From the sequence record SRR2962707_2507: DNA of 36,801 bases. The stretch is one strand, 5' to 3'. Positions 1,099-22,115 of the stretch are shown piece by piece. Numbering within the stretch: the first letter of the stretch is position 1; the number at the start of each line of letters is the position of its first letter. A program made the translations under genes and the position numbers. The notes beneath the pieces are model-generated. The model made no database searches. It was not told the origin of the DNA and saw nothing but the letters and a program-made list of their open reading frames with translations.

Positions 1099-1323
1099 GT
1101 GATGTTTGTTGCAGCTTTGATTTCTCAGTGTTTCTTATTAGTATCCAAGATACCTGTGTCATACAAAAAGCAATTTTATTCGGAGTGGGTAAATCGAAGG
1201 TAGGCTTGTTTCGTTTTATCTATGGATGAAGAAAATGCGACTGAGGGAAAGTGCGGGATATTATGAAATCATTATAAAAGTAGAATTAATGATTTAATTG
1301 TAATGATTGTTTTGAGGGTTGTA

Positions 1324-3174
1324 ATGGAAAACGATTTTTGTGTTGCTTCAGGTGTGAATAAAGAAATTTCCCATTTGAAAATCCTGAGTAAATTAATTTT
1401 TGTTATTAAGTTTCAGCACAAATGTATGTTCATTTTAATATTGTTTAATGCTCTTGTGATGTCTATTATTGAGATTAGTGGAATTGGTGTAATATTTTTA
1501 TTTATGAAAGTAGTATCTGATCCTAGTCAAATTCAAAAATCTGATTTACTATTTTATTTTTATGATTTTTTTAAATTTTCAAGCACAGAAAGATTCCTTG
1601 CCTTTATTGGTGCAGCGGCATTTTTTATTATAGTATTTAGAAGTTTTTTTGGGGCTTTTGAGGCATGGTTTCGTCTTAGATTTGTCAGTGAACTTCAGTT
1701 GTATTTTTCTACTGGTCTACTTAAGACTTATATGCATCGAAATATTTTATTTTTCCATAATAATAATACTTCATCATTAGCAAAAAATATTTTGGAAGAA
1801 ATTAACAGATTTGTTGGTGGTTACATTATGGAGGTTTTGTCAATTGTCAGTGATTTTTCTGTGTCAATAGTTGTTCTATCATTTTTAGTATTAAATGAAC
1901 CTGTCTTGTCAATTTCAGCGATATTTAGTATCGGTTCGGCATATTTATTAATATATTTTCTGCTTAAGAAGAAAGCAGAGAAGATCGGGCGGGATAGGAT
2001 GGTTGCAAATGATCGGCGTTTCATTAATGTAAACGAGGCTCTTGGTGGGATAAAAGAAGCAAAGTTACTTTCAATAGAAGATTTTTTCATAAATAAATTC
2101 AATAATAATAGTAAGATATTTTATGATACGACTGTAAAAGTAAAGCTATTCCAAGTGATTCCGAGATTTTTTCTCGAGGTTATTGCTTTTGGCGGGATTG
2201 TTATTTTTATTACTTATATGATTATTGCAGGGGAGCCGTTGGCAGGGTTGATGGGATCATTGACCTTGTTTGGGTTGGGGCTTTATCGTGCTTTTCCAAG
2301 ACTTGATGGTGTGTTGAAAGGGTTCTTAAGTCTTAGCTTTGATAAAAATGTAGTGTTATTGATTCTTGAGAGTTTTGAGATCCGATCAGATGATTGGGAA
2401 GACGCGGATCCTTTTAGGGTTGCGCTTCCATTTGTTAAGCAGATTAGTTTGGTAAATGTTTCATTTAGGTATCCAGATGCAAGTCAGGATGCCATATTTG
2501 TGCCCAATTTATCTATAAAGCACGGTTCGTCTGTTGGGATTGTTGGTAAAACCGGGGCCGGAAAGTCGACTTTGATGGATTTGATTACTGGGCTTATGGA
2601 GCCTACTCAAGGGGAGCTTAAAGTCGATGGTAAGGTTGTGAACCAAGTTAGTGTTAGGTCGTGGCAAAGAAATATTGGATATGTGCCGCAAACAATTTTT
2701 CTAAAGGACGGAAGTGTTTCTAGTAATATTGCGTATGGGGTTTTGGACAATAAAATTGACACGGAGGCAATTATAAGGGCTGCTAAAGCAGCGCATATTC
2801 ATGACTTCATCGTAAATGAATTGCCTCAAGGTTATGAAACTGAAGTTGGTGAGCGCGGGGTGCGTTTGAGCGGGGGGCAACGTCAGCGTATTGGGATTGC
2901 TAGGGCTTTATATATGGAGCCCAAAGTTCTTGTTCTGGATGAAGCGACTAGTGCGCTTGATAATGTTACTGAAGCTTCAGTAACTGCAGCGATAAAGGAG
3001 TTCTCGGGAAAGCTAACAGTTATAATGATCGCGCATCGTTTGTCGTCAGTAAGAGACTGCGATCAAATATTTTTTGTTGACCGGGGTGTAGTTGCTGGAA
3101 GCGGGAGCTATAGTGATCTTTTGGAAAACGAAAGCAAGTTTCGTGAGCTGGCGCAGGCGGATCTACGAAGCTGA
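1324..3174 (+). CDS. ABC exporter half-transporter (TMD+NBD), PglK/WlaB/MsbA-like lipid-linked oligosaccharide flippase
   Basis: Hydrophobic N-terminal half; Walker A GKTGAGKST, Q-loop GYVPQ, signature LSGGQRQRIGIARA, Walker B LVLDEATSALD, H-loop IAHRLS. The ORF is open from 1303; ATG 1324 follows GAGGG (1314-1318) and is the likelier start. Confidence 0.9.
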   Translation: MENDFCVASGVNKEISHLKILSKLIFVIKFQHKCMFILILFNALVMSIIEISGIGVIFLFMKVVSDPSQIQKSDLLFYFYDFFKFSSTERFLAFIGAAAFFIIVFRSFFGAFEAWFRLRFVSELQLYFSTGLLKTYMHRNILFFHNNNTSSLAKNILEEINRFVGGYIMEVLSIVSDFSVSIVVLSFLVLNEPVLSISAIFSIGSAYLLIYFLLKKKAEKIGRDRMVANDRRFINVNEALGGIKEAKLLSIEDFFINKFNNNSKIFYDTTVKVKLFQVIPRFFLEVIAFGGIVIFITYMIIAGEPLAGLMGSLTLFGLGLYRAFPRLDGVLKGFLSLSFDKNVVLLILESFEIRSDDWEDADPFRVALPFVKQISLVNVSFRYPDASQDAIFVPNLSIKHGSSVGIVGKTGAGKSTLMDLITGLMEPTQGELKVDGKVVNQVSVRSWQRNIGYVPQTIFLKDGSVSSNIAYGVLDNKIDTEAIIRAAKAAHIHDFIVNELPQGYETEVGERGVRLSGGQRQRIGIARALYMEPKVLVLDEATSALDNVTEASVTAAIKEFSGKLTVIMIAHRLSSVRDCDQIFFVDRGVVAGSGSYSDLLENESKFRELAQADLRS

Positions 3175-3212
3175 GAGAGATTAGATTTTTTCTCTGATTA
3201 AATTATTAGGAT

Positions 3213-4270
3213 GTGAACTTGGATAGGGCGTTTCTTGTCACGGGTGGTGCGGGCTTTATCGGGGCGGCCTTAATTCGTCAATTGATAGGCAAGGGTGTGC
3301 GGATTGTTAATGTTGATTGCCTTAACCTATGCAGGCAATCTCGAATCACTTGATAATGTTGTTGATTTTCCAAGCTACATCCATGAAAAGGTTGACATTC
3401 GGGATGCTGCTTCAGTCCGGCGGCTCTTTGAATGTTATCGTCCAAATGGTGTATTCCATCTTGCAGCCGAATCTCATGTCGATAGATCAATTGATAACGC
3501 TTCCGATTTCATTTCAACGAATGTTTTTGGCACGTATGTTCTTTTCGAAGCTGCGAGAGCGTACATAGAGACGGCTGATAAAGATGATTTTCGGTTCTCG
3601 CATGTTTCGACAGATGAAGTGTTTGGCTCTTTAGGGGGGGCAGGACGATTTAATGAAAAGACGCGATATCAGCCGCGTTCTCCTTATTCAGCGTCAAAGG
3701 CCTCACCCGATCATTTGGCGCGGGCATGGTTTGAGACATGCGGTGTCCCAGTAATTGTCTCGAATTGCTCAAATAATTATGGCCCTTTTCAATTTCCAGA
3801 AAAAGTTGATTCCTTTATCAATTATCCGCGCCCTGTCCTGCGAGACTATCCCGGTCTACGGTGATGGTAAAAATATTCGCGATTGGATATTCGTGGAGGA
3901 TCATGTTTCGGCATTGATATTGATCATAGAAAATGGCAGGGTCGGCGAAACTTATGCGATTGGTGGAAATAGAGAACTTACAAATCTTTCTGTCGTAACT
4001 GAGATTTGTAAGGTGCTTGATGAAATGCGACCAAGGGCTGATAGAGGCCTATACGTAGAGAGTATCCGGTTTGTTAAGGATCGGCCTGGACATGATTTTC
4101 GCTATGCGATTAATAGTGGTAAGTTGTCCTCTGAGCTGGCGTGGGAGCCTCGTGAGAGCTTTAAGACAGGGCTCAGGAAGACAGTTGCATGGTATATGGA
4201 AAATGAAGCTTGGGTAAAGAATGTTTTGGATGGTAGCTACTGCGATCAAAGATTAGGGGCCTTAAAGTGA
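3213..4270 (+). pseudogene. rmlB: dTDP-glucose 4,6-dehydratase disrupted by two +1 frameshifts
   Basis: Three frames join into RmlB: FLVTGGAGFIGAA...VNVD, then ALTYAGNLESL...HLAAESHVDRSI...HVSTDEVFG...YSASK...NCSNNYGPFQFPEK, then LIPLSI...VYGDGKNIRDWIFVEDH...DRPGHDFRYAI. There is an extra T at ~3318 and an extra A in the A5 run at 3800-3804. Confidence 0.93.
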
Positions 4271-5160
4271 TCACCAAAGGGATTATTCTTGCAGGTGGGG
4301 CCGGGACTCGTTTGTATCCAGCTACAAAATCGGTAAGTAAACAGCTCCTGCCCATATTTAATAAGCCAATGATTTATTATCCGCTCAGCACACTCATGCT
4401 TGCGGGCATCCGGGAGATTTTGATTATTACTCGACCGGAAGAGCGAGCATTGTTTCAAGGTCTTTTAAAAGATGGAAAGCAGTTCGGGGTAAGTATCTCA
4501 TATGCTTGTCAGGAGCATCCAAGAGGGCTGGCTGATGCATTTATAATTGGCCGCGACTTTATTGCGGGAGATCCTGTATGTTTGATACTCGGGGATAATC
4601 TGTATTACGGAGAAGGTTTGGGACGTGTTGTTCGTCAATTGGCGACGAAGACTGAAGGGGCCTCTTTGCTGGCGTATTATGTGAATGACCCGGAAAGATA
4701 CGGGGTTGTTGAATTCTCTTCCGATATGAAGGTCTTGAGTCTTGAAGAGAAGCCCGCGCAGCCGAAGTCTTCTTATGTAATAACCGGTATGTATTTTTAT
4801 GGGCCAGACGTATGTGAAATTGCAGCTTCGATAAAGCCATCCGGTCGTGGTGAATTGGAAATAACATCAATTAATCAGATATATTTTGAGCAAGGAAAAT
4901 TATCTGTTGAAGTCATGGGGCGCGGGTTTGCGTGGCTAGATACTGGAAGTCACGAGTCAATGTTGGAAGCGAGTAACTTTGTTGCAAGTATTGAGCAACG
5001 GCAAGGATTGTTAGTATCTTCACCGGAAGAAATAGCCTACCGACTTGGTTTAATAGATGCCGATATGTTGCGGAACCTAGCCTTACCTATGAGTAATACT
5101 GATTATGGTAGTATGTTGTTACGTGTTTTGATCGAGAAAAAACAATATGTGAGTAACTGA
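4267..5160 (+). CDS. rmlA: Glucose-1-phosphate thymidylyltransferase
   Basis: GIILAGGAGTRLYPAT..VSKQLLPIFNKPMIYYPLSTLMLAGI, LILGDN, EEKP, SGRGELEIT, GRGFAWLDTG. The GTG start overlaps the rmlB stop. Confidence 0.96.
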   Translation: MITKGIILAGGAGTRLYPATKSVSKQLLPIFNKPMIYYPLSTLMLAGIREILIITRPEERALFQGLLKDGKQFGVSISYACQEHPRGLADAFIIGRDFIAGDPVCLILGDNLYYGEGLGRVVRQLATKTEGASLLAYYVNDPERYGVVEFSSDMKVLSLEEKPAQPKSSYVITGMYFYGPDVCEIAASIKPSGRGELEITSINQIYFEQGKLSVEVMGRGFAWLDTGSHESMLEASNFVASIEQRQGLLVSSPEEIAYRLGLIDADMLRNLALPMSNTDYGSMLLRVLIEKKQYVSN

Positions 5161-5166
5161 GAGACT

Positions 5167-6324
5167 ATGAGAGAAAATTTTTTGGTATTTGGTAGTCCGC
5201 AAATCGGTCAGGACGAGATTGATGATGTCCGTGCAGTTATGGAAAGTGGCTGGTTGGGGACAGGCCCTCGAACAGCTCAGTTCGAAAATGATTTTAGCTC
5301 TTATATAGCTAGGCCGAACGCTGTAGCATTAAACTCTTGTACCGCAGCTTTACATCTTTCTGCCCTCGTTGCGGGGTTGGGTCCAGGGGATGAGGTGATC
5401 ACGACACCGCTGACATTCTGTGCCACCGTAAATGCTATTATTCATGTAGGGGCAGTTCCGGTTCTTGCGGATATCAATCCGGTTACTTTAAATATTGATC
5501 CAACTGAAATAGAAAAGAAAATTACTAGTAATACCAAGGCGATTGTGCCTGTGCATTTTGCGGGGCATCCGTGTGATATGGATGCGATCGTCGGGATTGC
5601 CCAACGGCATGATCTTGTGTTGATTGAAGATTGTGCGCATGCCATCGAAACCCTTTACAAAGGCCAGCATGTTGGGACGTTTGGCAGGTTTGGTTGTTTT
5701 AGCTTTTATGTCACCAAGAACATTGTGACTGGGGAAGGTGGGATGGTGACAGCTTCTGAACTGCAAGATGCCGATCGTGTTCGCAAACTGTCACTTCACG
5801 GAATGAGTCGGGATGCTTGGAAGCGTTTTGGGAGCGCAGGGTATCGTCATTATCAGGTCGAGGAAGCAGGTTTCAAATACAATATGATGGATCTGCAAGC
5901 TGCGATTGGAATACATCAACTGGCGCGTGTCGAGGCAAACCATGCGCGAAGAGGAATAATTTGGGAAAGATACAATTCCGCATTCGGAGGACTTCCAGTG
6001 AAGTTGCCAGCTGAAATTGAGCCCGGAAACCGGCACGCATATCATCTTTATACCCTGCAATTAGATGAGGAGCGTTCTCCGTTGAAACGCGATGTATTTC
6101 TTGATGCGATGACGGCCCGTAATATAGGGGTTGGGGTTCATTATCTAAGCTTACCAGAGCATCCTTTCTATCAGAATACTTTTGGATGGAAGACTGCCGA
6201 CTATCCGCATGCTATGCGTGCGGGGAGAACAATAGTAAGTCTGCCTATGTCAGCCAATCTTTCAGACAAAGATGTCTCCGACGTGATCACTACCGTCTCC
6301 GAATTGCTCTCGGATCCTAAATAA
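5167..6324 (+). CDS. DegT/DnrJ/EryC1/StrS PLP-dependent sugar aminotransferase (SpsC/ArnB-like)
   Basis: SGWLGTGP, NSCTAALHL, IVPVHFAGHPCDMD, IEDCAHA, FSFYVTKNIVTGEGG (PLP lysine), GFKYNMMDLQAAIG. Confidence 0.93.
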   Translation: MRENFLVFGSPQIGQDEIDDVRAVMESGWLGTGPRTAQFENDFSSYIARPNAVALNSCTAALHLSALVAGLGPGDEVITTPLTFCATVNAIIHVGAVPVLADINPVTLNIDPTEIEKKITSNTKAIVPVHFAGHPCDMDAIVGIAQRHDLVLIEDCAHAIETLYKGQHVGTFGRFGCFSFYVTKNIVTGEGGMVTASELQDADRVRKLSLHGMSRDAWKRFGSAGYRHYQVEEAGFKYNMMDLQAAIGIHQLARVEANHARRGIIWERYNSAFGGLPVKLPAEIEPGNRHAYHLYTLQLDEERSPLKRDVFLDAMTARNIGVGVHYLSLPEHPFYQNTFGWKTADYPHAMRAGRTIVSLPMSANLSDKDVSDVITTVSELLSDPK

Positions 6325-7148
6325 TGCCAGAGAATAAGCAAATGCAAAGTTACGGTCGATATTCCTTGGCGAGTTTGTTCGATCTGGACGGACAAGTGAT
6401 TATGGTTACTGGTGCCGGAGGGCAGATAGGTGGTGAAATTGTGGCAGCTGCCCTAGGATTAGGAGCACAAGTTGTGGCCTCTGATGCGAACGAAGAAGTA
6501 TTGCTCAATCGAGCATCAGGCGCTGGCTGGCCGGACGACAAAGTATTATTGGCATCTTGTGATATCCGCTTTAAAGATCAAGTTCGTGATTTGTTTGAAC
6601 GCGGAGAGGAGAAATTTGGGACGATAACTGCTTTGGTGAATAATGCCGGGGTGAGTGTTTTTGAACCGTTTTTAGAGCGTGACGAGGCTGCGTTCGACTG
6701 GGTAATGGATGTAAACCTCAAAGGGACATTCTGGTGTATTCGAGAATTTATTGAACGGTCCAACAAGGAACAGAAGCGCCGGATAGTGAACGTTGCTTCT
6801 CATTATGGTTTAGTAAGCCCGGATCCCCGCATTTATACGGATTGTGCCCGCCGAAATTCAGAAGTCTACGGAGCAACGAAAGCTGGTGTTATACAAATGA
6901 CGCGGTACTTTGCGGTGCATGCGGCTGAGTATGGCGTCAATGTAAATGCTATTGCGCCAGGGGGGGTCCGCAACCCTTGGGACCCGCAAGGTTCGGATTT
7001 TCAACACAATTATGGTTTTCGCAATCCGATGGGTCGCATGGCTGAATTGGATGAAATTCCAGGTGCTGTTGTCTTCTTACTATCGCAAGCAGCGAACTAC
7101 ATTAACGGCCAAACGATTGCTATTGATGGCGGCGCGACGGCTTGGTGA
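6324..7148 (+). CDS. SDR-family NAD(P)-dependent oxidoreductase (PtmA/ElaC-like, nonulosonate-cluster type)
   Basis: TGAGGQIG, NNAG, YGATK catalytic motif, VNAIAPGG, YINGQTIAIDGG. The segment SHYGLVSPDPRIY is typical of SDRs in NulO loci. Confidence 0.88.
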   Translation: MPENKQMQSYGRYSLASLFDLDGQVIMVTGAGGQIGGEIVAAALGLGAQVVASDANEEVLLNRASGAGWPDDKVLLASCDIRFKDQVRDLFERGEEKFGTITALVNNAGVSVFEPFLERDEAAFDWVMDVNLKGTFWCIREFIERSNKEQKRRIVNVASHYGLVSPDPRIYTDCARRNSEVYGATKAGVIQMTRYFAVHAAEYGVNVNAIAPGGVRNPWDPQGSDFQHNYGFRNPMGRMAELDEIPGAVVFLLSQAANYINGQTIAIDGGATAW

Positions 7149-7179
7149 AAATCTAATTTAAATCGGAGGTTATTAGAGA

Positions 7180-8037
7180 ATGGCTGGAAAAGTACTGAGT
7201 TTCGGTGGTCGCAAAGTCGGTGAAGGATTTCCTGTCTTTGTGATTGCAGAAGTCGGGATTAATCATGATGGGGATATGAACTCGGCTGAGAAGCTGTTGG
7301 TTGAAGCTGCCAAAGCGGGTGCAGATGCCGTAAAGCTGCAGACATATATCACCGAGAAGCGCGTAGAACGCGACAGTCCAGTATATGATATCTTAAAAAA
7401 ATGCGAGCTTAGCTTCGACGAACAAGAAAGATTGTTTGAATTGGGGCGCGAGCTTGGGGTCATGGTTTTCAGCACCCCGTTTGATGATGAGGCCGTTGAT
7501 TTTCTTGAGAGTGTAAACACGCCTGCCTACAAGGTTGCTAGCTTTGATTCTGTGAATAAGACGTTGTTGCGGAAGATCAGTGCAACGAAAAAGCCTGTTA
7601 TAATGTCTACCGGGATGACCAGTCTCGAAGAGCTTGGTGCTGCATGGAAAGCTCTGGGCGGGAAGGAAGACGGGACTGGATGTGATTTGGCTCTGTTGCA
7701 TTGCGTTTCGTCTTATCCACTAGACGACAAGAAGGCCAATCTTGCTGTCGTGCCTTATCTTCACGAACTCCATGGTGGGCCTGTTGGTTATTCGGACCAT
7801 ACCATAGGTATTGAAGTTCCTGCCTTGGCTGTTGCAGCAGGCGCTCAACTAATCGAAAAGCATTTCACGCTTGATACTTCAGCAAGTGGGCCTGATCATG
7901 CGATGTCAGCTGACCCAAAAACCTTGCAGGTAATGATTGAAAAAATTCGTTGGGTCGAAAAAGTGATGGGTGTAAGGACCTTGGGTGTTCGGGAAACGGA
8001 AACCAGTATCGTTCCTTTCCGTCGAATGACGGATTAA
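7180..8037 (+). CDS. NeuB-family nonulosonic acid synthase, short form lacking the SAF/antifreeze-like domain
   Basis: VIAEVGINHDGD, GADAVKLQT, FSTPFD, YKVASFD, IMSTGM, LLHCVSSYP, GYSDHT, IEKHFTLD..GPDH. The protein is only 285 aa. Confidence 0.93.
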   Translation: MAGKVLSFGGRKVGEGFPVFVIAEVGINHDGDMNSAEKLLVEAAKAGADAVKLQTYITEKRVERDSPVYDILKKCELSFDEQERLFELGRELGVMVFSTPFDDEAVDFLESVNTPAYKVASFDSVNKTLLRKISATKKPVIMSTGMTSLEELGAAWKALGGKEDGTGCDLALLHCVSSYPLDDKKANLAVVPYLHELHGGPVGYSDHTIGIEVPALAVAAGAQLIEKHFTLDTSASGPDHAMSADPKTLQVMIEKIRWVEKVMGVRTLGVRETETSIVPFRRMTD

Positions 8038-8049
8038 CCGCAAAAGAAG

Positions 8050-9087
8050 ATGACTTTAATAACGTTTCGATGTGATGGCGCGACTTTACCGGAAATCGGA
8101 ACGGGCCACGTAATTCGTGATTTGACGCTTGCAAATGGGCTGGTTTCGCTAGGAATTTGCCAAAGAGAAGATATTCTATTTGCTGTTCGTAGCGAAGGTC
8201 CATATGCCGTGGGTGCAGATATTATCGATCAGGCTGGTTTTTCAAAACTGGCATGCGCCGATAGTGACTTAGACCCCAAGGGAGCCTCCGAAGGTCAAAC
8301 ACTATCCGATACGGGCGCCAAGGTAATCATTTTTGATCGGTTAACTACCGACCGGGCAACAATAGAAGCTGCTCGAGAGAAACGCGCAAAGATTGTTTCT
8401 TTTGATGACCTGGGGAGTGGAAAGGGTGCCGTCGACCTTGTTGTCAACGCAATTTTGTATTCTGCAATGGGGTCATGCGACCGTATGCTTTCGGGCTATG
8501 ACTACTTGATCCTTCCGGAAAGTACGCCAAACTGGCGTCAGAGAAGCGGTCCCGTCGACCGCATCCTAGTGAGTTTTGGGGGTTATGACCGGAATGACTT
8601 AAGCGGGCAGTTCTTGGACGCTCTACCGCATTTGTCTTCCAGTGCCCGAGTTGACGTCGTAATCGGTGAAGTTGAAGGAAAAGGCCTCAATGCGTTGAAG
8701 CAGAAGGCCACGAGGTTGGGGAGCGGGCGCGTATTTCTTCACCGCCGACCGAAAAATTTCGGTTCTTTTCTGGATGCTGCTGACATGGCCATTGTTGCGG
8801 GGGGATTGACAATTTTTCAGTGTGTCGCTGCGGGGGTACCAGTAATTGGCTTTTCTCAGTATGATCATCAACGCACGACGCTCAAGCGGCTAGCGAAGCT
8901 TGGGGTAATAGAAAATGGTGATGCTTGCATGCATCCACAAAAAGCATTTGTTGATAGCGCGAATAAGTTACTTTCATCAGATAGCTTGCGTCGTGTCTTA
9001 TCTAAGACGTGCGCTAAGACGATAGACCATGATGGATTACCCAGGGTCATTTCTGCTATTACCAAATTACTAAGCGGAGAAGTTTGA
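8050..9087 (+). CDS. PseG/SpsG-family nucleotide-sugar hydrolase (GT-B fold)
   Basis: FRCDG...IGTGHVIRDLTLA, VSFDD, ILVSFGGYD, ADMAIVAGGLT...GVP. Confidence 0.85.
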   Translation: MTLITFRCDGATLPEIGTGHVIRDLTLANGLVSLGICQREDILFAVRSEGPYAVGADIIDQAGFSKLACADSDLDPKGASEGQTLSDTGAKVIIFDRLTTDRATIEAAREKRAKIVSFDDLGSGKGAVDLVVNAILYSAMGSCDRMLSGYDYLILPESTPNWRQRSGPVDRILVSFGGYDRNDLSGQFLDALPHLSSSARVDVVIGEVEGKGLNALKQKATRLGSGRVFLHRRPKNFGSFLDAADMAIVAGGLTIFQCVAAGVPVIGFSQYDHQRTTLKRLAKLGVIENGDACMHPQKAFVDSANKLLSSDSLRRVLSKTCAKTIDHDGLPRVISAITKLLSGEV

Positions 9088-9851
9088 GTTTGGCGCTAGA
9101 TCAAGAAAAACTGGTAAGTAATGATATTGTTTGCTTGCTTCCTTGGGATTCAAATTTTTTTGGGTTCCCCGTGGCTCAGGTAACCAGTGAACGATTAACC
9201 GCCGAGGGTATGACCAGGGTCTTGGAGTTTTGCCGCGAGTGTGACGTTAAGCTCCTTCAGTTCAAATGTGATGCGCATGATCGGCAGAGTATTCTTCTGG
9301 CCGAGCAACATGGCTTTCATTTTGCAGACATACGAATGACCTTTACCTGCAAGACATCCAACGCGGTTAACGCCTTGGTGAAGCCTTCAAAAGTCGTTTT
9401 TCGTAAAGCTGAAGAGCATGATATTGAATCGCTAATGGCGATTGCCGAAGATTTGTATCTGCATAGCCGTTACTATTTTGATATCAACTTCCCTAGGGAC
9501 AGAGTACGCGATTTTTACAGGGATTGGGTTCGAAAATCGGTGGGTGGTGAGTTTGATGATTTCGTATACGTCTTGAGTAACCGGGGTCGACTTGTGGCAT
9601 TTTGTACAGTTAAGCTTGGTAGAAAAGAGGCGAGTATCGGATTGGTTGGGGTGGACCCCCAATTCGCAGGGCAAGGTTTTGGTCGAAAACTGATAAAGAT
9701 TGTGTTGAGTGAAATCTTTGTAAGTGGCTTTGGTCAAGTTGGTGTAGTTACTCAAGGACGTAATTATTCTGCGCAAAGATTGTATCAAAGTGTTGGATTT
9801 ACAATGCAGCACCTGCAAATTTACTATCATAGATGGCAAGAAATTAATTAA
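9084..9851 (+). CDS. GNAT N-acetyltransferase, WecD/RffC (dTDP-4-amino-sugar acetyltransferase)-like
   Basis: LLPWDSNFFG, SRYYFD, acetyl-CoA motif VDPQFAGQGFGRKL, VVTQGRNYSAQRLYQSVGF. Confidence 0.85.
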   Translation: MSLALDQEKLVSNDIVCLLPWDSNFFGFPVAQVTSERLTAEGMTRVLEFCRECDVKLLQFKCDAHDRQSILLAEQHGFHFADIRMTFTCKTSNAVNALVKPSKVVFRKAEEHDIESLMAIAEDLYLHSRYYFDINFPRDRVRDFYRDWVRKSVGGEFDDFVYVLSNRGRLVAFCTVKLGRKEASIGLVGVDPQFAGQGFGRKLIKIVLSEIFVSGFGQVGVVTQGRNYSAQRLYQSVGFTMQHLQIYYHRWQEIN

Positions 9852-9864
9852 TTATTGAAAGGAA

Positions 9865-10563
9865 GTGATAGTGTCGCACTTAGCAATTATTCCATGTAAG
9901 CGGAATTCTTCACGGGTGAAGGATAAAAATATCAGAGACTTGTATGGTTTGCCATTGTTTGTGCATTCATTCCAGCAAGCTAAAGAATCTGGTATCTTTA
10001 GTGATATTCTCATTTCAACAGAGTCCGATTACATTGTTGATCTGGCAAGTAATTACAATATAGATATTCCGTTCAAGAGATCAGATAAATATACGCACGA
10101 TGACGTCACGCTTGGTGACTATGTTATTGAAGCTCTTGATCGGTTCAAGGAGATGGGAAAGGACTTTGAGTTTGTTACTGTTCTGTTCGCTACTTCTCCA
10201 CTTAGAACTCCAAATGATATTATTTCATGTTTTAATATGATTGATAAAGATATCGATGGGAGTGTGAGTATTGTAAAGTATAATTATCCCGTTCTGCATG
10301 CATTAAAGCAAGATGGAAATTTGGTTATTCCTCTCTATCCCGAATATACGGATGTTATTGAACAGCACCACCCGAAGTGTTTTGCTGATAATGCTTCCAT
10401 TTTGATGATGAGAGTTGAAAAGTTCAGAAAGACTAAGAACTTTTTCGTTGGAAATATTGCCGGATATATTATGCCATCCAACCGCTCAGTCGATATTAAT
10501 ACCGAAGAAGATTGGGAGATGGTCGAGTTTCTCTTCCCAAAGACTCGTGAGGTAACAGATTGA
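9865..10563 (+). CDS. Acylneuraminate cytidylyltransferase (NeuA/PseF family)
   Basis: AIIPCKRNSSRVKDKNIRDLYGLPL, ATSPLR, SVDINTEEDW. Confidence 0.9.
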   Translation: MIVSHLAIIPCKRNSSRVKDKNIRDLYGLPLFVHSFQQAKESGIFSDILISTESDYIVDLASNYNIDIPFKRSDKYTHDDVTLGDYVIEALDRFKEMGKDFEFVTVLFATSPLRTPNDIISCFNMIDKDIDGSVSIVKYNYPVLHALKQDGNLVIPLYPEYTDVIEQHHPKCFADNASILMMRVEKFRKTKNFFVGNIAGYIMPSNRSVDINTEEDWEMVEFLFPKTREVTD

Positions 10564-11294
10564 AAGTCGTAGTTACTATTGAAGCACGAATGTCTTCGCG
10601 CAGGCTGCCGGGAAAAGTGTTGTTGCCGGCAGCTGGTAGGCCATTCTTGAGCCACATGATAGAGCGTGTAAAACAAGTTCCCGGGATAAGTGAAATTGTT
10701 ATTGCAACAACGGATAACCCAGCTGATTCAATCCTGGAGAAATTCGCTCAGGAAAACTGTGTGTCTGTTTTTCGGGGTAGCGAAGAAGATGTGATGGGGC
10801 GTGTCTTAGCTGCGGCGGAGATGGTATCTGCAGATGTAATAGTAGAGTTGACTGGAGACTGCCCGATCATTGATCCAGCGATTATTGATGATTGTGTACA
10901 GTTATATTTGAGCAGTGACTGCGATTACGTAAGCAACTGTGTGGAACGCAGTTATCCAGACGGGATGGATGTTCAAGTATTTTCTGTAGATGCTCTGAGG
11001 AAGTCTGCGGACATGACCGTTGATCCGTTTGACCGAGAACACGTAACTTTACATATTCGGCGAAGTCCTGACATATTCAAGATGTGCGATCTGGTTGCTC
11101 CTAAGGAGCTTACTTGGCCTGAGCTTGGGCTTACGCTAGATGAGCAAGCTGATTACGAGATGTTGAAAGTAATTACAGAGGAGTTATACATTTCCTCTCC
11201 GTTTTTCAGTTGTGAGGACGTAATTGACTTTCTGCGACGACGTCCAGAGGTGAGAGCCTTGAATCAGACTGTTTCTCGGACTGTTTACGAATGA
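10560..11294 (+). CDS. SpsF-type cytidylyltransferase-fold protein
   Basis: TIEARMSSRRLPGKVL, IATTDNPAD, FRGSEEDVMGR, ELTGDCPIIDP, YPDGMDVQV, REHVT, LTLDEQADY. Confidence 0.9.
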   Translation: MKVVVTIEARMSSRRLPGKVLLPAAGRPFLSHMIERVKQVPGISEIVIATTDNPADSILEKFAQENCVSVFRGSEEDVMGRVLAAAEMVSADVIVELTGDCPIIDPAIIDDCVQLYLSSDCDYVSNCVERSYPDGMDVQVFSVDALRKSADMTVDPFDREHVTLHIRRSPDIFKMCDLVAPKELTWPELGLTLDEQADYEMLKVITEELYISSPFFSCEDVIDFLRRRPEVRALNQTVSRTVYE

Positions 11295-12271: not shown

Positions 12272-12275
12272 GCAA

Positions 12276-13214: not shown

Positions 13215-13269
13215 GAAGTGTTAAGTATTGGGTTGTTCGACTCAAGTGAATTACGGATGAGGTGATAAG

Positions 13270-14574
13270 GTGAAGCTTGCAATAAATGGCGGAAATAAGG
13301 TTGCGACTGAACCGTTTCCCCCGAGTAACTACATCGGTATGGAAGAAAAGGTGGCCGTCAATGAAGTCTTGGACAGTGGCGTTCTGTCGCGTTTTCTTGG
13401 GTGCTGGGATCCAGATTTTTATGGAGGTTCAAGAATTCAGACATTGGAGAATGATTGGGCGAATTTCTTCGGGGTGAAGCATGCAATTGCTGTTAACTCA
13501 TGTACATCTGGCTTGCAGTGTGCGGTAGGCGCAATTGGTCTAGAACCCGGAGATGAGGTAATTGTTACGCCGTACACCATGTCTGCGTCGGCTTCATCAA
13601 TCGTCGCATTCAACGGAGTGCCAGTGTTTGCTGATGTTGAGGAAGACTATTTCTGTATAAACTCTGCCGATATTGAGAAAAAGATTACCTCCCGTACAAA
13701 AGCAATAATGGCAGTGGATTTGTTTGGTCTACCTATTGCCGGACAAGAAATAAGATCTTTGGCTGACAAACATGGACTGTTTGTAATTGAAGATGTCGCT
13801 CAAGCACCGGGTGCAAAGTACCATGGTGATTATGCCGGAACATTGGGCGATGTAGGCGTTTTTTCGCTCAATTATCATAAGCACATTCATTGCGGTGAGG
13901 GTGGGGTAGTTATCACAGACAATGACGAATTGGCTGAACGTATCAGACTGATTCGTAATCATGCTGAAGCCGTTGTGGCCGACAAGGGGGAAACAAATCT
14001 AGTCAATATGGTAGGCTATAATTTTCGGATGACAGAGATAGAAGCGGCAATAGCTGCTTGTCAGCTAAAAAAGCTACCGGATTTGATTCAAGCGAGGGTA
14101 GAAAATTGTAGATACCTAGAGAGCGGACTTGAAGAGATGCTGGGTATAACGCCAGCTAAAGTGAGGCCAGGCTGCTCACACGTATATTACGTTCATCCTT
14201 TCTTGTTCGACGAGAAGCAGGTGGGGGTACATAGAGATGTGTTTGTTGAGGCTGTCAAAGCAGAGCTACCTGTTACGACTCTTCGAGAAAACGAGGGCCC
14301 TTTGCTAGCGGCTGGATATGAAAAGCCACTCTATAAGCAGCCAATGTACCAAAAAAATATTGCATATGGCACTCAGAGATTCCCCTGGAGCTTTAACAAG
14401 CAGAGTAATTCGAATCCTTATCTCAATGCTAGTTGCCCTGTTGCCGAAAAACTTCATGGAAGCAAGCTGTTTTTCCATGAAATGATGAGGCCCGGAATGT
14501 CGAGGAGTGATTTGGACAAAGTTATTGAAGCATTCTTGAAGGTGTATAATAATCTAGATGAGTTGCGAAAATGA
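13270..14574 (+). CDS. Second DegT/DnrJ/EryC1/StrS aminotransferase
   Basis: MKLAINGG, VNSCTSGL, GDEVIVTPYTMSAS, IEDVAQAPGA, FSLNYHKHIHCGEGG, GYNFRMTEIEAA. Confidence 0.93.
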   Translation: MKLAINGGNKVATEPFPPSNYIGMEEKVAVNEVLDSGVLSRFLGCWDPDFYGGSRIQTLENDWANFFGVKHAIAVNSCTSGLQCAVGAIGLEPGDEVIVTPYTMSASASSIVAFNGVPVFADVEEDYFCINSADIEKKITSRTKAIMAVDLFGLPIAGQEIRSLADKHGLFVIEDVAQAPGAKYHGDYAGTLGDVGVFSLNYHKHIHCGEGGVVITDNDELAERIRLIRNHAEAVVADKGETNLVNMVGYNFRMTEIEAAIAACQLKKLPDLIQARVENCRYLESGLEEMLGITPAKVRPGCSHVYYVHPFLFDEKQVGVHRDVFVEAVKAELPVTTLRENEGPLLAAGYEKPLYKQPMYQKNIAYGTQRFPWSFNKQSNSNPYLNASCPVAEKLHGSKLFFHEMMRPGMSRSDLDKVIEAFLKVYNNLDELRK

Positions 14575-15308
14575 ATTTTGACAAAGAAATATCCACGATT
14601 GTAATCGCAAGTTTTAACGCCTATCCATGTACCGAGATTCTTTATAAGTGCAGTAAAAGAGGGATTCCGATCGAGGCTGTTGTCTTTGTTGGGGATGCTG
14701 TTAATTATAAAACAAGGAGCATTACTTGGGAATACACAAATTTTGAGGCGGGTTTAAGAATTGTTGATTTAGAAGATTTACATGTGCCCTGTTATTTTGT
14801 GAAGGATATTAATTCGGCGAATGCTAGATCGTTGTTGAGTAAATTGAAGCCCGATGTGATTTTACAGGGCGGCGTGGGGATTCTCAAAAGCGATATCATC
14901 GAAATCCCTTCTATCGGGATACTGAATTCTCATCCAGGAAAGTTGCCAGACTATCAAGGGTGCATGGCCGTTGAATGGAGTATTTACAATGATGATCCGG
15001 TTTGCTCGACTTGTCATTTCATTGATGATGGGATCGATACAGGCCCAATCATTACGGTTCGTGAACTCGAAATAAAAAGTTACATGGATTATCATTCAAT
15101 TCGCCGTAAAGCGCTTTCGCACAGGGTCGACGTGCTGCTTGATGGACTTGAGCTGGTGTTAGCTGGTTTTCGTAGAGGTGATGCCTTTAAGCAAGGTGAA
15201 GGAACCTACTACAAGCCAATGAAGGAGGGCGAGATGGCGAAAATGCTGAAGATGATAGAAAATGCAACTTATAGTCATTTCAAAGATAAGATGGGTAGTA
15301 TAACGTGA
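14571..15308 (+). CDS. Formyltransferase (N10-formyl-THF-dependent sugar N-formyltransferase-like)
   Basis: ILNSHPGKLPDYQG and TCHFIDDGIDTGPII supply the Asn/His/Asp formyltransferase signature. Confidence 0.88.
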   Translation: MNFDKEISTIVIASFNAYPCTEILYKCSKRGIPIEAVVFVGDAVNYKTRSITWEYTNFEAGLRIVDLEDLHVPCYFVKDINSANARSLLSKLKPDVILQGGVGILKSDIIEIPSIGILNSHPGKLPDYQGCMAVEWSIYNDDPVCSTCHFIDDGIDTGPIITVRELEIKSYMDYHSIRRKALSHRVDVLLDGLELVLAGFRRGDAFKQGEGTYYKPMKEGEMAKMLKMIENATYSHFKDKMGSIT

Positions 15309-19020: not shown

Positions 19021-20343
19021 GTGGCGATGAAGTATAGTGCTGAAAAAGCGACTGGACTTAGTTTAGAGCGCGGTAACGCGGCTTGGAGCGAAACGCTTTC
19101 TCTGATTCCAGGAGGAGCACAAACCTTCTCTAAAATGCCTATGCAGCATGTGGATGGGGTGTCTCCTAAATATATATGCAGAGGCAAGGGTTGCTACGTT
19201 TGGGATTTGGATGGAAATCGATACATCGACTACATGTGTGGTTTAGGTCCTGTCATTTTGGGACACGCCGATAGCGAGATTAACCATGCGGTATTTGAGC
19301 AGATGGAGAATGGTATTTCTCCGTCTTTGCCGAGTTTGTTGGAGACGCAGCTTGCTAGAAAACTTGTTGAACTGATCCCATGTGCTGAAATGGTTCGTTT
19401 TGGAAAAAATGGATCAGATGTCACATCTGCCGCAATTCGAGCGGCTAGGGGGATTACGGGAAGAGAGAAAGTGGCTATTTGCGGCTATCACGGTTGGCAG
19501 GATTGGTATATTGGAACAACATCTCGGAACAAAGGTGTTCCAAGGGCCGTTCAGGACCTAAGCCTAACGTTTTCCTATAACGACATAAGCTCGTTGGAAA
19601 AACTATTTGCTGATCATCAAGATGAAGTGGCCGCTGTAATTTTGGAGCCCGTCAACTTCTATGAACCTGCAGGTGATTTCCTGAAGAAGGTTCGCGAAGT
19701 TACGCATGCTGCAGGAGCACTTCTTATCTTTGATGAGGTCATTACAGGTTTCCGGATGGGGTTGGGAGGGGCTCAAAAACATTATGGTGTTACGCCAGAC
19801 CTAGCCTGTTTTGGGAAGGCCATGGCAAATGGCTTCCCCATATCCGCCGTCGTAGGAAAGCGCGAATATATGGAGGTGTTCGAGGATATCTTCTTTTCTT
19901 TTACTTTTGGTGGAGAGACGGCTTCCATAGCTGCGGCATTGGCTACAATTGAGGCCATGGAGCGGCGTAATACAATCGATCATATTCGGAGTGCAGGTGA
20001 CCAACTGATGTCTGGGTACACCGAGATTGTAGCTAAGCTAGGGTGCGGAGCTATGACTCGAATGATTGGGTTCCCTTGGTGGCCAGAGTACCTGTTCTTT
20101 GATCTTGACGGAAAACCTTCTCTCGAAATCCAGTCCTTGTTCCAACAAGAGATTGTTCGCCGGGGCATCTTGACCCGCGCGGGTATGATGATTACCGGTG
20201 CACATCAGGTGGCTGACATTGACCAGACGCTTCAAGTGTTTGATGAAGCGCTGGAGGTTGTGTGGACAGCTGTTTGTGATGGTAAGGTTCTTGAGTTGCT
20301 GGACGGAGAAGTTATTCAGCCAGTAATTCGACAGGTTGACTGA
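19021..20343 (+). CDS. Class III PLP aminotransferase (HemL/glutamate-1-semialdehyde aminomutase-like), glycan-cluster type
   Basis: IPGGAQTFSK, RGKGCYVWDLDGNRYIDY, GPVILGH, VRFGKNGSD, GYHGWQDW, LIFDEVITGFR, PDLACFGKAMANG. Confidence 0.92.
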   Translation: MAMKYSAEKATGLSLERGNAAWSETLSLIPGGAQTFSKMPMQHVDGVSPKYICRGKGCYVWDLDGNRYIDYMCGLGPVILGHADSEINHAVFEQMENGISPSLPSLLETQLARKLVELIPCAEMVRFGKNGSDVTSAAIRAARGITGREKVAICGYHGWQDWYIGTTSRNKGVPRAVQDLSLTFSYNDISSLEKLFADHQDEVAAVILEPVNFYEPAGDFLKKVREVTHAAGALLIFDEVITGFRMGLGGAQKHYGVTPDLACFGKAMANGFPISAVVGKREYMEVFEDIFFSFTFGGETASIAAALATIEAMERRNTIDHIRSAGDQLMSGYTEIVAKLGCGAMTRMIGFPWWPEYLFFDLDGKPSLEIQSLFQQEIVRRGILTRAGMMITGAHQVADIDQTLQVFDEALEVVWTAVCDGKVLELLDGEVIQPVIRQVD

Positions 20344-20518
20344 TTTGATAGAATACGCCGTCGTGTAAGCGGCGCTTTGGATGTATTTTTTCAAGTGTAT
20401 CCTTCTCAATCAGGCATCTGTCACATAGAGCGACCGTTCTGTGGCTCTTTCCATTAAAGTTTGATGAGTTTGCGCTTCAGTGCGCGTAAAAAGAGAAACT
20501 ATCTGGAGGCATAGGCGA

Positions 20519-21535: not shown

Positions 21536-22103
21536 TGAGGGTAAAACTTCTAGGGTCCCAAGCGCTGTTCGTGCGTACTCAAAATACTCATTATGGCATT
21601 CTATTCGGCGCAGGTGGGTTCTCCGTGGCGCTGGCTCCGTCGGTGAAAAAGTGTATGTTGAGCGGAATGTCGAGCTGCAGAGGCACCCGGAGAACGTTTT
21701 CCTAGGTGCCGGGGTGCTGCTTAAGGAAGGCGTGCGTATATGTCCGACCCATGAAAACGTCAGTATTTCGATTGGGGATTGGACGACAGTAGGGCACCAT
21801 ACATTCGTATTTGCCAAGGGTGATGTAGAGATTGGTAGCGATTGTCTGATCGCTCCTTTTTGTTATTTGGTCGATAGCGATCACGGGACTGCTTCTGGAG
21901 AGTTGATCCGTAATCAGGACATGGTTGTTGCTCCTATTCGAATAGGTAATGGTGTTTGGCTTGGCGCCGGTGTGGTCGTAACAAAGGGTGTTACAATTGG
22001 TGACGGGGCTGTTGTCGCCGCGCGCTCAGTGGTCACAAAAGATGTGCCAGCTAATGCTGTTGTGGCTGGGACTCCTGCAAAACTTGTCCGTTACCGAGTG
22101 TAA
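21528..22103 (+). CDS. Hexapeptide-repeat (left-handed beta-helix) O/N-acyltransferase
   Basis: IGDWTTVG, VEIGSDCLIAP..YLVDSDHG, IRIGNGVWLGAGVVVTKGVTIGDGAVVAARSVVTKDVP..VVAGTPAK. GGGAGGG precedes TTG 21528. Confidence 0.92.
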   Translation: MADEGKTSRVPSAVRAYSKYSLWHSIRRRWVLRGAGSVGEKVYVERNVELQRHPENVFLGAGVLLKEGVRICPTHENVSISIGDWTTVGHHTFVFAKGDVEIGSDCLIAPFCYLVDSDHGTASGELIRNQDMVVAPIRIGNGVWLGAGVVVTKGVTIGDGAVVAARSVVTKDVPANAVVAGTPAKLVRYRV

Positions 22104-22115
22104 TGGATTCGTATC

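Follow-up and report, generated by a model that had tools for sequence, protein, structure and literature searches.

To our knowledge, all known routes to nonulosonic acids begin at UDP- or GDP-GlcNAc, or at ManNAc or mannose. The Pse pathway of Campylobacter and Helicobacter (PseB, PseC, PseH, PseG, PseI, PseF) shares with the gene block described here the logic that follows the dehydratase: an aminotransferase, a GNAT, a PseG-type hydrolase, a NeuB-family synthase and a cytidylyltransferase, and the GxGH motif of PseG is in register with the PseG-like protein of the block. In contrast to that pathway, the block has no PseB, its five homologues all score below the curated Pse cut-offs, its GNAT is WecD-like, its NeuB is devoid of a SAF domain and there is an extra SDR; its relatives, moreover, are linked to RmlA, RmlB and WecE and not to UDP-GlcNAc enzymes.

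In Bacillus subtilis a distantly encoded UDP-GlcNAc dehydratase, SpsM, feeds SpsC, SpsD, SpsG and SpsE as well as SpsF and leads to legionaminic acid (excerpts of PMC7439481). The resemblance to the Bacillus sps genes seen in an earlier note on this DNA is real as far as gene families go, given that DegT, GNAT, PseG-like, NeuB-like and cytidylyltransferase genes stand there beside rmlA and rmlB, with the dehydratase outside the cluster; it does not extend to the feed, as by the same excerpts the rml genes (spsI-L) include rmlC and rmlD and make rhamnose, while SpsM supplies the UDP-GlcNAc-derived intermediates (PMC7439481). Our block lacks rmlC and rmlD, its relatives have WecE-type DegT proteins, and its NeuB is farther from SpsE (PDB 1vli, 153 bits) than from its nearest PDB entry, 6ncs (183 bits), which is likewise SAF-less with 290 aa.

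The dTDP-Fuc4NAc branch of enterobacterial common antigen (ECA) synthesis (RmlA, RmlB, WecE, WecD) uses the same four enzyme families; RmlA, RmlB and WecE exceed the curated cut-offs in marine relatives of the block, and the GNAT aligns with WecD over its full length. In ECA the dTDP-sugar passes to a glycosyltransferase, whereas the block interleaves a NeuB, a cytidylyltransferase and a PseG-like hydrolase that frequently forms one protein with the GNAT; in the DNA studied here a DegT of another clade takes the place of WecE, and the rmlB gene is broken. Fusaminic acid of Fusobacterium nucleatum, by its title 5-acetimidoylamino-3,5,9-trideoxy-non-2-ulosonic acid (title cited in PMC7371886), is a naturally occurring nonulosonate that combines a single amino group and a single hydroxyl with a 9-deoxy end; its amino group is on C5 and its hydroxyl on C7, the reverse of the product proposed below. 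Our search found no literature naming a 5-hydroxy-7-acylamino pattern.

With a probability of roughly 0.45, we consider that the block belongs to a conserved and so far uncharacterised pathway from an NDP-4-keto-6-deoxyhexose to a CMP-nonulosonic acid, the precursor most probably being dTDP-linked in the family.

Gene content and boundaries of the block

The window, by which we mean the whole analysed stretch of 36.8 kb, yielded 37 ORFs that were scanned against Pfam and NCBIfam. All genes of the block lie on the plus strand, and their coordinates and profile matches (Table 1) bear out the eight-gene order, rmlB to NeuA, read earlier from the sequence: rmlB-rmlA-DegT-SDR-NeuB (without SAF)-PseG-like-WecD-like GNAT-PseF-like cytidylyltransferase. 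Also upheld was the absence of other feeding enzymes, since none of the 37 ORFs matched PseB (the inverting UDP-GlcNAc 4,6-dehydratase, PF02719/TIGR03589) or PglF, LegB, the NeuC-like hydrolysing 2-epimerase LegG, RmlC or RmlD; extended-SDR dehydratase families were matched by the rmlB pieces only. For the aminotransferase LegC and the synthase LegI of the Leg pathway, the family matches in the window are below the cut-offs given further down.

Table 1. Position and family assignment of genes in the window.
Feature	Position	Strand	Evidence
PglK/MsbA-like ABC exporter, head of glycan island	1303..3174	+	NF050066 306 bits (below cut-off), PF00005, PF00664
rmlB (dTDP-glucose 4,6-dehydratase) pseudogene	3213..4270	+	three-frame translation; pieces 3295-3864 and 3755-4270 match NF007582 (211 and 199 bits)
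rmlA, glucose-1-phosphate thymidylyltransferase, intact	4267..5160	+	TIGR01207 447.6 bits (cut-off 360.65)
DegT-family NDP-4-keto-sugar aminotransferase, ArnB/PseC-like clade ("P-type")	5167..6324	+	PF01041 404 bits
Classical FabG/PtmA-like SDR	6324..7148	+	PF13561, PF00106; NF006619 147 bits (below cut-off)
NeuB-family PEP-condensing synthase without C-terminal SAF, 285 aa	7180..8037	+	PF03102 only
PseG-like NDP-sugar hydrolase, GT-B fold	8050..9087	+	TIGR03590 104.6 bits (cut-off 153.55)
Two-domain WecD-like GNAT N-acyltransferase	9084..9851	+	NF008212 106.4 bits, residues 16-247 (cut-off 219)
PseF-like CMP-ulosonate synthetase	9865..10563	+	TIGR03584 135.9 bits (cut-off 205.7), PF02348
KdsB-like cytidylyltransferase	10560..11294	+	PF02348 95.6 bits
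Second DegT and formyltransferase	13270..15308		formyltransferase 47 bits, weak, to dTDP-4-amino-4,6-dideoxyglucose formyltransferase family
HemL-like class-III aminotransferase	19021..20343	+	NF004856 438.9 bits (cut-off 486)
Second NeuB, with SAF domain	20480..21535

At the boundary of the exporter gene the GC content falls from 0.59 to 0.32-0.49; this gene also lies ahead of the module in L080, the closest relative of the window (77% identity), and in L003, L010, L091 and L096. The end of the block, formerly placed at 10563, has to be moved, as the KdsB-like and HemL-like genes farther downstream belong to the same conserved module elsewhere. Copies of the former, with 33-42% identity, come after the module in L001, L003, L004, L006, L007, L009, L010, L081, L091 and L096; this is the type of cytidylyltransferase accompanying the module in other genomes. 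The HemL-like aminotransferase, whose PDB relatives include sugar C-6' aminotransferases, is found in most module loci, and L003 and L081 encode the two as one fused protein (704 and 678 aa, respectively).

As to rmlB, its position and order in the block stand, but not its being an open gene: it can be read through only with two frame changes, a +1 near 3324 and another in the A5 run of 3800-3805. Contigs of X1 span both sites at a depth of about 65 with 0 differences and 0 gaps; as X1 is possibly the source run of the window, their match counts as a re-assembly rather than as independent sampling. In the reads the G7 tract at 3634-3640 varies in length (-1 at depth 16.9 and -2 at 14.6, of 120.5), and at 3600, 3630 and 3763 X1 contigs have loose ends that resemble another rmlB of canonical type; one such end, translated by eye, reads RTYGLPTIVT. 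With the rmlB of the block dead, a route that is still dTDP-linked would need its keto-sugar from a second rmlB located elsewhere in the genome. The start of rmlA overlaps the rmlB stop, and of the pathway to dTDP-4-acetamido-4,6-dideoxyhexose (RmlA, RmlB, WecE/VioA, WecD) the window holds an intact RmlA and no intact RmlB.

The two frameshifts and the heterogeneous G7 tract would fit a decaying, non-functional remnant in the strain of the window, with rmlB as the first visible casualty. We regard this as very improbable, for the remaining ORFs of the block that were scanned all match their family profiles over the full length, and the L080 orthologues are open and 58-92% identical.

The aminotransferase and the downstream enzymes

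The window DegT falls below all NCBIfam cut-offs (ArnB, 348.2 against 631; PseC, 335.6 against 423.5; the WecE-type model NF008687, 271.2 against 375; TIGR02379, 217.4 against 434.85; the LegC family, 229.9 against 420). Its nearest solved structure is ArnB (1mdo, 290 bits; WecE, 4piw, 178.5 bits). The protein is not a WecE-type dTDP-sugar 4-aminotransferase, a point missed in the earlier note: judged by its sequence, it belongs to another clade, nearer to the UDP-sugar enzymes ArnB and PseC. WecE-type DegT proteins above the cut-off do occur in related loci (L004, L087, L090, L091, L096 and L102). The adjoining SDR (top PDB match 6uh2, 163 bits) is a regular component of the module; copies 41-56% identical stand next to DegT in module loci.

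The NeuB-family synthase covers positions 1-271 of 329 in TIGR03569 (NeuB_NnaB; 265.2 bits against 399.65) and reaches 248 bits against the PseI cut-off of 340.25; the C-terminal SAF domain that follows the TIM barrel in NeuB, PseI and LegI is missing. Among the best 120 homologues listed for it, nearly all measure 275-306 aa and SAF occurs in one. A quick tree places it in a supported clade (SH-aLRT 98) of 13 rows, 8 of them from WecE-type modules, separate from the canonical PseI group.

Compared by its family profile, the PseG-like protein matches 3hbm, the PseG of C. jejuni, and the GxGH motif is in register; G17, T18, G19 and H20, which align to GFGH of 3hbm, are invariant or nearly so in 22 homologues. 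The His of this motif has a catalytic role in PseG. The GNAT is aligned to NF008212 along its full length and, weakly, to the full length of WecD (PDB 2fs5), and no other sugar N-acyltransferase family is among the matches listed for it; its relatives, at 75-136 bits, likewise fall short of the WecD cut-off. The two proteins are fused in L003, L007, L009 and L010, and 29 of 120 PseG homologues among the matches listed have 553-600 aa with GNAT domains. Because GNAT, PseG, NeuB and cytidylyltransferase are all below the curated cut-offs, no step can be assigned by equivalence.

Recurrence in other loci and genomes

A neighbourhood survey, suggested in the earlier note as a check, turned out in favour of a dTDP feed for the family. 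The PseG-like gene was present at 30% identity or more in 45 of 138 fetched loci, 25 of which could be assessed, as they had SDR and DegT in the vicinity and no less than 2 kb of sequence upstream. Of these 25, 13 have rmlB and rmlA next to the block or within it, 1 has rmlA alone, 1 has remnants and 10 have neither; the exact eight-gene order of the window recurs in 7 loci (L083, L090, L093, L095, L097, L102 and L105). The carriers are diverse, including SAR86, Prochlorococcus, Omnitrophota, Elusimicrobia, Micrarchaeota and many marine contigs, with 26 clusters at 70% PseG identity among 28 loci.

RmlB of the rml-linked loci reaches 442-483 bits against a cut-off of 365.1, and RmlA 400-476 bits against 360.65; rmlB is intact and above the cut-off in all 13, and neither rmlC nor rmlD was seen in the scanned parts. 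The DegT proteins of L087, L090, L091, L096 and L102 exceed the cut-offs of both NF008687 (487-505, cut-off 375) and TIGR02379 (451-465, cut-off 434.85), so that all five of the rml-linked loci tested encode the WecE type. The archaeal L007, with RmlB at 403 bits and a long-form RmlA at 394 bits, both above the cut-offs, combines rmlB/rmlA with the DegT type of the window and a PseG-WecD fusion. RmlB was above the cut-off in five of five genomes tested.

These scores bear on a dTDP-linked 2-acetamido route, in which RmlA and RmlB would take GlcNAc-1-P and dTDP-GlcNAc and a 5,7-diacetamido nonulosonate would result, a caveat already entered when the block was first noted. In Campylobacter, PtmA and PtmF supply a dedicated GlcN-6-P pool. 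The PtmA-like SDR and PtmF-like GFO genes of the window would suit such a route, and both names are listed for a Leg cluster (excerpt of PMC4481668). We nevertheless think it very improbable: RmlA and RmlB of the family exceed equivalog cut-offs for the glucose enzymes, WecE-type DegT proteins indicate 2-hydroxy substrates, and the block has no GlmU-like or mutase gene.

More weight is due to an ordinary 5,7-diacylamino nonulosonate of the Pse or Leg type, for which a PseB/PglF/LegB-type HexNAc 4,6-dehydratase outside the window would feed the ArnB/PseC-like DegT with a UDP- or GDP-4-keto-6-deoxy-HexNAc, as SpsM does. The rml genes would then be relics, or have served another dTDP sugar, for example through the second DegT and the formyltransferase, whose weak family match is in keeping with this; the B. 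subtilis precedent has rml genes beside such genes without feeding them, according to the excerpts (PMC7439481). Apart from the affinities of the DegT, the broken rmlB points the same way, as does L080, where rmlBA is reduced to remnants while the module is intact and open (identity to the window: DegT 84%, SDR 84%, NeuB 92%, PseG 67%, GNAT 58%), which implies that local rml genes are dispensable in this lineage. The DegT type of the window also occurs without rmlBA nearby in four assessed loci (L003, L006, L099 and L110), and in L006, L007 and L009, whose DegT is of the same clade, a LegB-like dehydratase (448-470 bits, near the cut-off of 475) lies about 5-24 kb from the module. A PF02719-type or LegB-like dehydratase is encoded somewhere in seven of ten module-bearing genomes. 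On the side of the dTDP feed, the whole genomes G005, G006 and G010 have no clear PseB/PglF or LegB. Against an ordinary product, no curated Pse or Leg model is passed, the acyltransferase is WecD-like, the SAF-less NeuB nests with those of WecE-type, rml-linked modules, the 36.8 kb of the window and 21 kb of L080 contain no PseB/PglF/LegB-type dehydratase, and a Leg route would lack its NeuC-like 2-epimerase. We hold this explanation to be possible, if doubtful.

The idea put forward earlier, that RmlA, RmlB, DegT and GNAT feed the PseG-like enzyme and NeuB, thus gains from the cluster family through rml linkage, WecE-type DegT proteins, the absence of rmlC and rmlD and the fusions, and is weakened for the window by the rmlB pseudogene, the L080 remnants, the other DegT clade and the three LegB-like neighbours. 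In sum, these comparisons support a dTDP-4-acylamino-4,6-dideoxyhexose route for the family and do so less strongly for the genome of the window.

Proposed pathway and product

The enzymatic steps, the nucleotide and the product given here are predictions made from the observed gene content, order, frameshifts, family memberships and synteny statistics. In the pathway we favour, DegT would aminate C4 of an NDP-4-keto-6-deoxyhexose, in the family most likely dTDP-4-keto-6-deoxyglucose from RmlA and RmlB; the WecD-like GNAT would acylate the C4 amine, the PseG-like enzyme would cleave off the nucleotide, the SAF-less NeuB would condense the free 4-acylamino-4,6-dideoxyhexose with PEP, and the cytidylyltransferase would activate the ulosonate. 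The family product would be a 5-hydroxy-7-acylamino-3,7,9-trideoxynonulosonate, in its N-acetyl form C11H19NO8 with a calculated mass of 293.11 Da. Further tailoring may be the task of the PtmA-like SDR and the HemL-like enzyme, for instance by oxidation of a hydroxyl and subsequent transamination.

The dTDP-glucose-fed route is a candidate variant within a known type of pathway. If it exists, it would bring a new core structure and new enzyme specificities, in that a PseG-type hydrolase would act on dTDP-sugars and a SAF-less NeuB on a 2-hydroxyl sugar, and in many ocean microbes the block would appear to be wired to dTDP-glucose in place of the usual GlcNAc precursors. We tentatively go further and suggest that there may be another core class of nonulosonates, 7-acylamino, 5-hydroxyl and 9-deoxy, made from dTDP-glucose via RmlA, RmlB, a WecE-type or related DegT, the WecD-like GNAT, the PseG-like protein as a dTDP-sugar hydrolase and the SAF-less NeuB. 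Ocean bacterioplankton (SAR86, Prochlorococcus, low-GC marine lineages), Omnitrophota, Elusimicrobia and DPANN archaea may commonly display it on their surfaces; SDR and HemL-like enzyme could turn a hydroxyl into an amine and so give GlcNAc-independent diamino nonulosonates, and the window might represent a lineage caught rewiring, its DegT swapped and its local rmlBA decaying.

Marine metagenomes contain the cluster family in great abundance (among 7999 scored candidates, 7474 are short-NeuB relatives at E ≤ 1e-40), so that its product is probably a major, unrecognised surface sugar, which would be relevant to phage recognition and glycan profiling. As the predicted mass equals that of a deoxy-Neu5Ac, existing DMB-MS or CMP-sugar methods should apply directly.

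Gene content and the cluster family

All genes in the 36.8-kb window lie on the plus strand, and Pfam and NCBIfam scans of 37 ORFs provide the map in the table. The scans bear out both the gene order that an earlier note had read and its list of absent genes: none of the ORFs scanned matches PseB/PglF (PF02719), LegB, NeuC, RmlC or RmlD. The proB gene (1-1098) has a GC content of 0.59, which drops to about 0.32 directly after it; values of 0.32-0.49 prevail from the ABC exporter on, and the remainder of the window therefore looks like an acquired glycan island.

Features of the window; downstream genes are listed in order after position 10563
Feature	Position	Strand	Basis or remark
PglK/MsbA-like ABC exporter	1303-3174	+	Pfam/NCBIfam scan
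rmlB	3213-4270	+	Pfam/NCBIfam scan; reading frame broken
rmlA	4267-5160	+	passes TIGR01207 (447.6 bits, cut-off 360.65)
DegT	5167-6324	+	Pfam/NCBIfam scan
FabG/PtmA-like SDR	6324-7148	+	Pfam/NCBIfam scan
NeuB	7180-8037	+	Pfam/NCBIfam scan; 285 aa
PseG-like gene	8050-9087	+	Pfam/NCBIfam scan
WecD-like GNAT	9084-9851	+	Pfam/NCBIfam scan
PseF-like cytidylyltransferase	9865-10563	+	Pfam/NCBIfam scan
1st-3rd: KdsB-like cytidylyltransferase, GFO/IDH/MocA oxidoreductase, ORF without family		+	
4th-6th: second DegT, formyltransferase, methyltransferase		+	
7th-9th: further ORF without family, TIM-barrel protein, second PseF-like gene		+	
10th-13th: HemL-like aminotransferase, second NeuB with SAF domain, hexapeptide acetyltransferase, further cytidylyltransferase		+	
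Last: glycosyltransferases, methyltransferases, AsnB-like protein		+	

Among the matches listed, just two resemble the window's PseG-like protein closely (70% and 67% identical), other full-length relatives reaching at most 37%. PseG-GNAT fusions of 553-600 aa make up 29 of the 120 PseG-like homologues listed, and this joining of hydrolase to acyltransferase argues that the two handle consecutive intermediates in a single pathway. Querying metagenomes with the window's PseG-like protein alone gave 119 pattern matches, none of them confirmed; with an alignment of 22 PseG-like homologues, 79 loci were retrieved from genomes and 59 from metagenomes, and all 138 were probed by tblastn with the window proteins. 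Of the 138, 45 encode a PseG-like protein of at least 30% identity. They have in common DegT, SDR, NeuB, a cytidylyltransferase and a HemL-like aminotransferase, whereas the WecD-like GNAT may be present or absent. The carriers include SAR86 (L001, L004), Prochlorococcus (L002), Omnitrophota (L003, L010), Elusimicrobia (L006) and Micrarchaeota (L007, L009), as well as many marine contigs of 25-41% GC, and the loci are diverse (26 clusters at 70% PseG identity among 28). The cluster family to which the window block belongs is large and unnamed.

Linkage to rmlBA and the predicted route

The earlier note had proposed that RmlA, RmlB, DegT and WecD feed a dTDP-linked sugar to the PseG homologue and NeuB, giving a Kdn/Leg-hybrid nonulosonate. 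The cluster family supports this reading through its rmlBA linkage and its WecE-passing DegTs, whereas the window itself, with a dead rmlB and a DegT of another clade, weakens it. The neighbourhood survey that the note had proposed as a check drew on 25 of the 45 loci, those in which SDR and DegT lie close to the PseG-like gene and the sequence extends 2 kb or more upstream. In 13 of them rmlB and rmlA adjoin the block or lie within it, always on its strand (L007, L009, L081, L083, L090, L091, L093, L095, L096, L097, L100, L102, L105), one has rmlA alone (L087), one has remnants of the pair (L080), and ten have neither gene (L001, L002, L003, L004, L006, L010, L098, L099, L101, L110). Three further loci, cut at a contig end and outside the 25, begin with rmlA or rmlB (L082, L084, L103). 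The window's eight-gene order is repeated exactly in seven loci.

NCBIfam scans of the rml-linked loci tested placed RmlB (442-483 bits) and RmlA (400-476 bits) above their cut-offs, and the DegT proteins of L087, L090, L091, L096 and L102 pass both WecE models (487-505 bits against 375; 451-465 against 434.85). The GNATs of the relatives are all WecD-like, at 75-136 bits, below the cut-off of 219. No RmlC or RmlD was found among the upstream ORFs of the rml-linked loci scanned, nor anywhere in the stretches of L081, L083 and L095 that were scanned. As judged from family assignments, the rml-linked loci hold a full predicted enzyme set for dTDP-4-acetamido-4,6-dideoxyhexose, with genes for a nucleotide hydrolase, a PEP-condensing synthase and a CMP-transferase placed in between. 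We consider it probable (about 0.7) that the members with a WecE-type DegT use dTDP sugars; the family is a candidate for a widespread dTDP-linked nonulosonate module, of which the window would be a rewired copy with a dead rmlB.

DegT would aminate C4 of an NDP-4-keto-6-deoxyhexose and the WecD-like GNAT would acylate the amine; the PseG-like enzyme, in which the GxGH motif is conserved, would hydrolyse off the nucleotide, NeuB would join the free sugar to PEP in a condensation, and the cytidylyltransferase would activate the product with CMP. With dTDP-glucose as origin, the product would be a 5-hydroxy-7-acylamino-3,7,9-trideoxynonulosonate, with a predicted mass of 293.11 Da in its N-acetyl form as against 334.14 Da for a diacetamido nonulosonate. 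Every module contains the SDR, and most contain the HemL-like aminotransferase, whose relatives include sugar C-6' aminotransferases; with low confidence, the two may form a tailoring pair that oxidises and then transaminates.

The front half of the module matches the ECA branch RmlA-RmlB-WecE-WecD. The Pse pathway follows the same logic as the module, but the window proteins miss every curated Pse and Leg model. The sps locus of Bacillus subtilis is similar in appearance, yet was resolved otherwise: SpsM, encoded at another locus, dehydrates UDP-GlcNAc, SpsC/D/G/E/F lead to legionaminic acid, and the rml genes are described as encoding separate dTDP-rhamnose enzymes (PMC7439481). Fusaminic acid shows that a mono-amino 9-deoxy nonulosonate exists, with a substitution pattern opposite to that of the proposed product. 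No description of a nonulosonate route through dTDP sugars, or of a 3,7,9-trideoxy nonulosonate, came up in our literature search; subscription journals and bioRxiv supplements lay outside its scope, and one may be in print. Unassigned CMP-ulosonic acids from environmental bacteria are reported in a 2026 preprint, so products of this kind can be detected.

The window's rmlB, DegT and NeuB

The rmlB gene lies where the earlier note had placed it in the block; it is not an open gene, two +1 frameshifts having been overlooked. ORF calling splits it into 3295-3864 and 3755-4270, and three-frame translation gives a full-length RmlB only with a +1 shift near 3324 and another at the A5 run 3800-3805, the first frame stopping at 3351-3353 and the second at 3862-3864. 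Logan contigs of X1, a sequencing run that is possibly the window's source, span 3100-3610 and 3656-4400 at a depth of 65-69 with zero differences and zero gaps; the frameshifts therefore exist in the reads, the agreement being that of a re-assembly and not of an independent isolate. The G7 tract of the pseudogene (3634-3640) has -1 and -2 length variants in X1 (depth 16.9 and 14.6 of 120.5), which may reflect slipped-strand heterogeneity or an error in sequencing the homopolymer. Programmed frameshifting was rejected in view of the two separate +1 sites and the deletion of rmlB in L080. At loose ends of X1 (3600, 3630, 3763), contigs match the conserved rmlB core only and diverge on both sides, one reading RTYGLPTIVT when translated by eye; the run therefore contains another rmlB-like gene, of canonical type. 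The seawater run X2 shares with the window only short conserved rmlB/rmlA stretches of less than 90% likeness, and is uninformative on the window's organism.

The closest relative, L080, is part of a 454-kb contig that shares the obg-proB-ABC junction with the window. Its module is conserved (identity to the window: DegT 84%, SDR 84%, NeuB 92%, PseG 67%, GNAT 58%), and the 830 bp between the ABC and DegT genes lack any ORF of at least 100 aa and contain pieces that align to the rmlB 3' end, the rmlA 5' start and the rmlA 3' end. The local rmlBA pair is therefore decaying in the window/L080 lineage, with the module kept under constraint. A second rmlB elsewhere may have made the local pair redundant, of which the X1 loose ends give a hint; a switch of precursor along with DegT in this lineage also fits.

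The window's DegT belongs to an ArnB/PseC-like (P-type) clade, scoring 348 bits with ArnB, 336 with PseC and 271 with WecE-type models, all under the cut-offs; its nearest solved structure is ArnB. An octulosonate made from a UDP-4-keto-pentose by an ArnB-like DegT was considered and dropped, the module having no UDP-GlcA decarboxylase and the relatives carrying WecE. The P-type clade recurs in L003, L006, L099, L110, L007, L009 and L080. Four of these (L003, L006, L099, L110) have no rmlBA nearby, and a LegB-like dehydratase (448-470 bits, cut-off 475) lies about 5 kb from the module in L007 and L009 and about 23.5 kb from it in L006. Supply of the window block by a distant HexNAc dehydratase, giving a Pse/Leg-type sugar, is possible but less likely than not. 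The archaeal blocks L007 and L009 combine a P-type DegT with bona fide RmlB and long-form RmlA.

Searches of ten carrier genomes (G001-G010) for such dehydratases were equivocal. RmlB is above cut-off in all five tested (G001-G005). A true PF02719 member (at least 338 bits) occurs in G001, G002, G003 and G009, with a weak match in G006 (132 bits) and none in the MAG or single-cell assemblies G004, G005, G007, G008 and G010; LegB-type genes of at least 448 bits occur in G002, G003, G004, G007, G008 and G009. No recognised HexNAc 4,6-dehydratase was found in three of the ten (G005, G006, G010), an absence that is weak evidence because all are MAGs or single-cell assemblies.

The window's NeuB consists of the NeuB domain alone, its match to TIGR03569 stopping at 271 of 329; the best solved relative, 6ncs, has 290 aa, and short-form homologues are very numerous, almost all of those listed having 275-306 aa. 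An arginine of the SAF domain holds the N-acetyl group of the substrate in the meningococcal enzyme, and the absence of this domain would fit a substrate that carries a 2-hydroxyl. A quick tree of 61 sequences, in which the L083 row is a paralogous NeuB2-type gene picked by score, sets the module NeuBs apart from the canonical PseI group and places those of the window and L080 in a 13-row clade (SH-aLRT 98) with eight WecE-type and four P-type modules; the DegT type switches at least three times on this tree. The window's NeuB thus shares its ancestry with those of rml-/WecE-linked clusters, and this kinship mildly favours the same substrate class. That the window still uses dTDP sugars has, in our estimate, slightly less than an even chance.

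Other gene combinations on the island and in relatives

The obg-proB-ABC junction opens the island in the window (1-3174) and in L080 (1971-6290) alike, which suggests a single insertion site common to this lineage. The window region 11291-16138 encodes a GFO/IDH/MocA oxidoreductase, a 312-aa ORF without family and the second DegT, followed by a formyltransferase and a methyltransferase; the first three also adjoin canonical pse clusters in L037, L063, L065 and L070 (26-30% and 43-48% identity), and the genes of the region may form a set for tailoring by oxidation, amination and formylation. The HemL-like aminotransferase, SAF-bearing NeuB, hexapeptide acetyltransferase and KdsB-like cytidylyltransferase at 19021-22832 are conserved together, at 77-91% identity in L080 and 50-67% in L083, L087, L093, L097 and L115, and appear to form a mini-pathway of their own that leads to a different CMP-ulosonic acid.

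Among the relatives, L003 (11668-13782, 704 aa) and L081 (12134-14170, 678 aa) encode a CTP_transf_3 cytidylyltransferase fused to a HemL-like class-III aminotransferase. After its PseG-like gene, SAR86 locus L001 carries an ArnA/Fmt-like formyltransferase (11031-11960) in the place of the WecD-like GNAT, a swap that points to an N-formylated form of the same sugar.

Within 26856-29181 of the window, the AsnB-like protein matches the synthetase domain only, with no GATase domain match listed, and the end of its gene runs 62 bases into the ORF that follows (28456-29181, no family), possibly a second case of a frameshifted gene. A 466-aa protein (22839-24239) combines a GT2 glycosyltransferase domain with a weakly matching CTP_transf_3/NTP_transf_3 domain, and would couple sugar activation and transfer in one chain.
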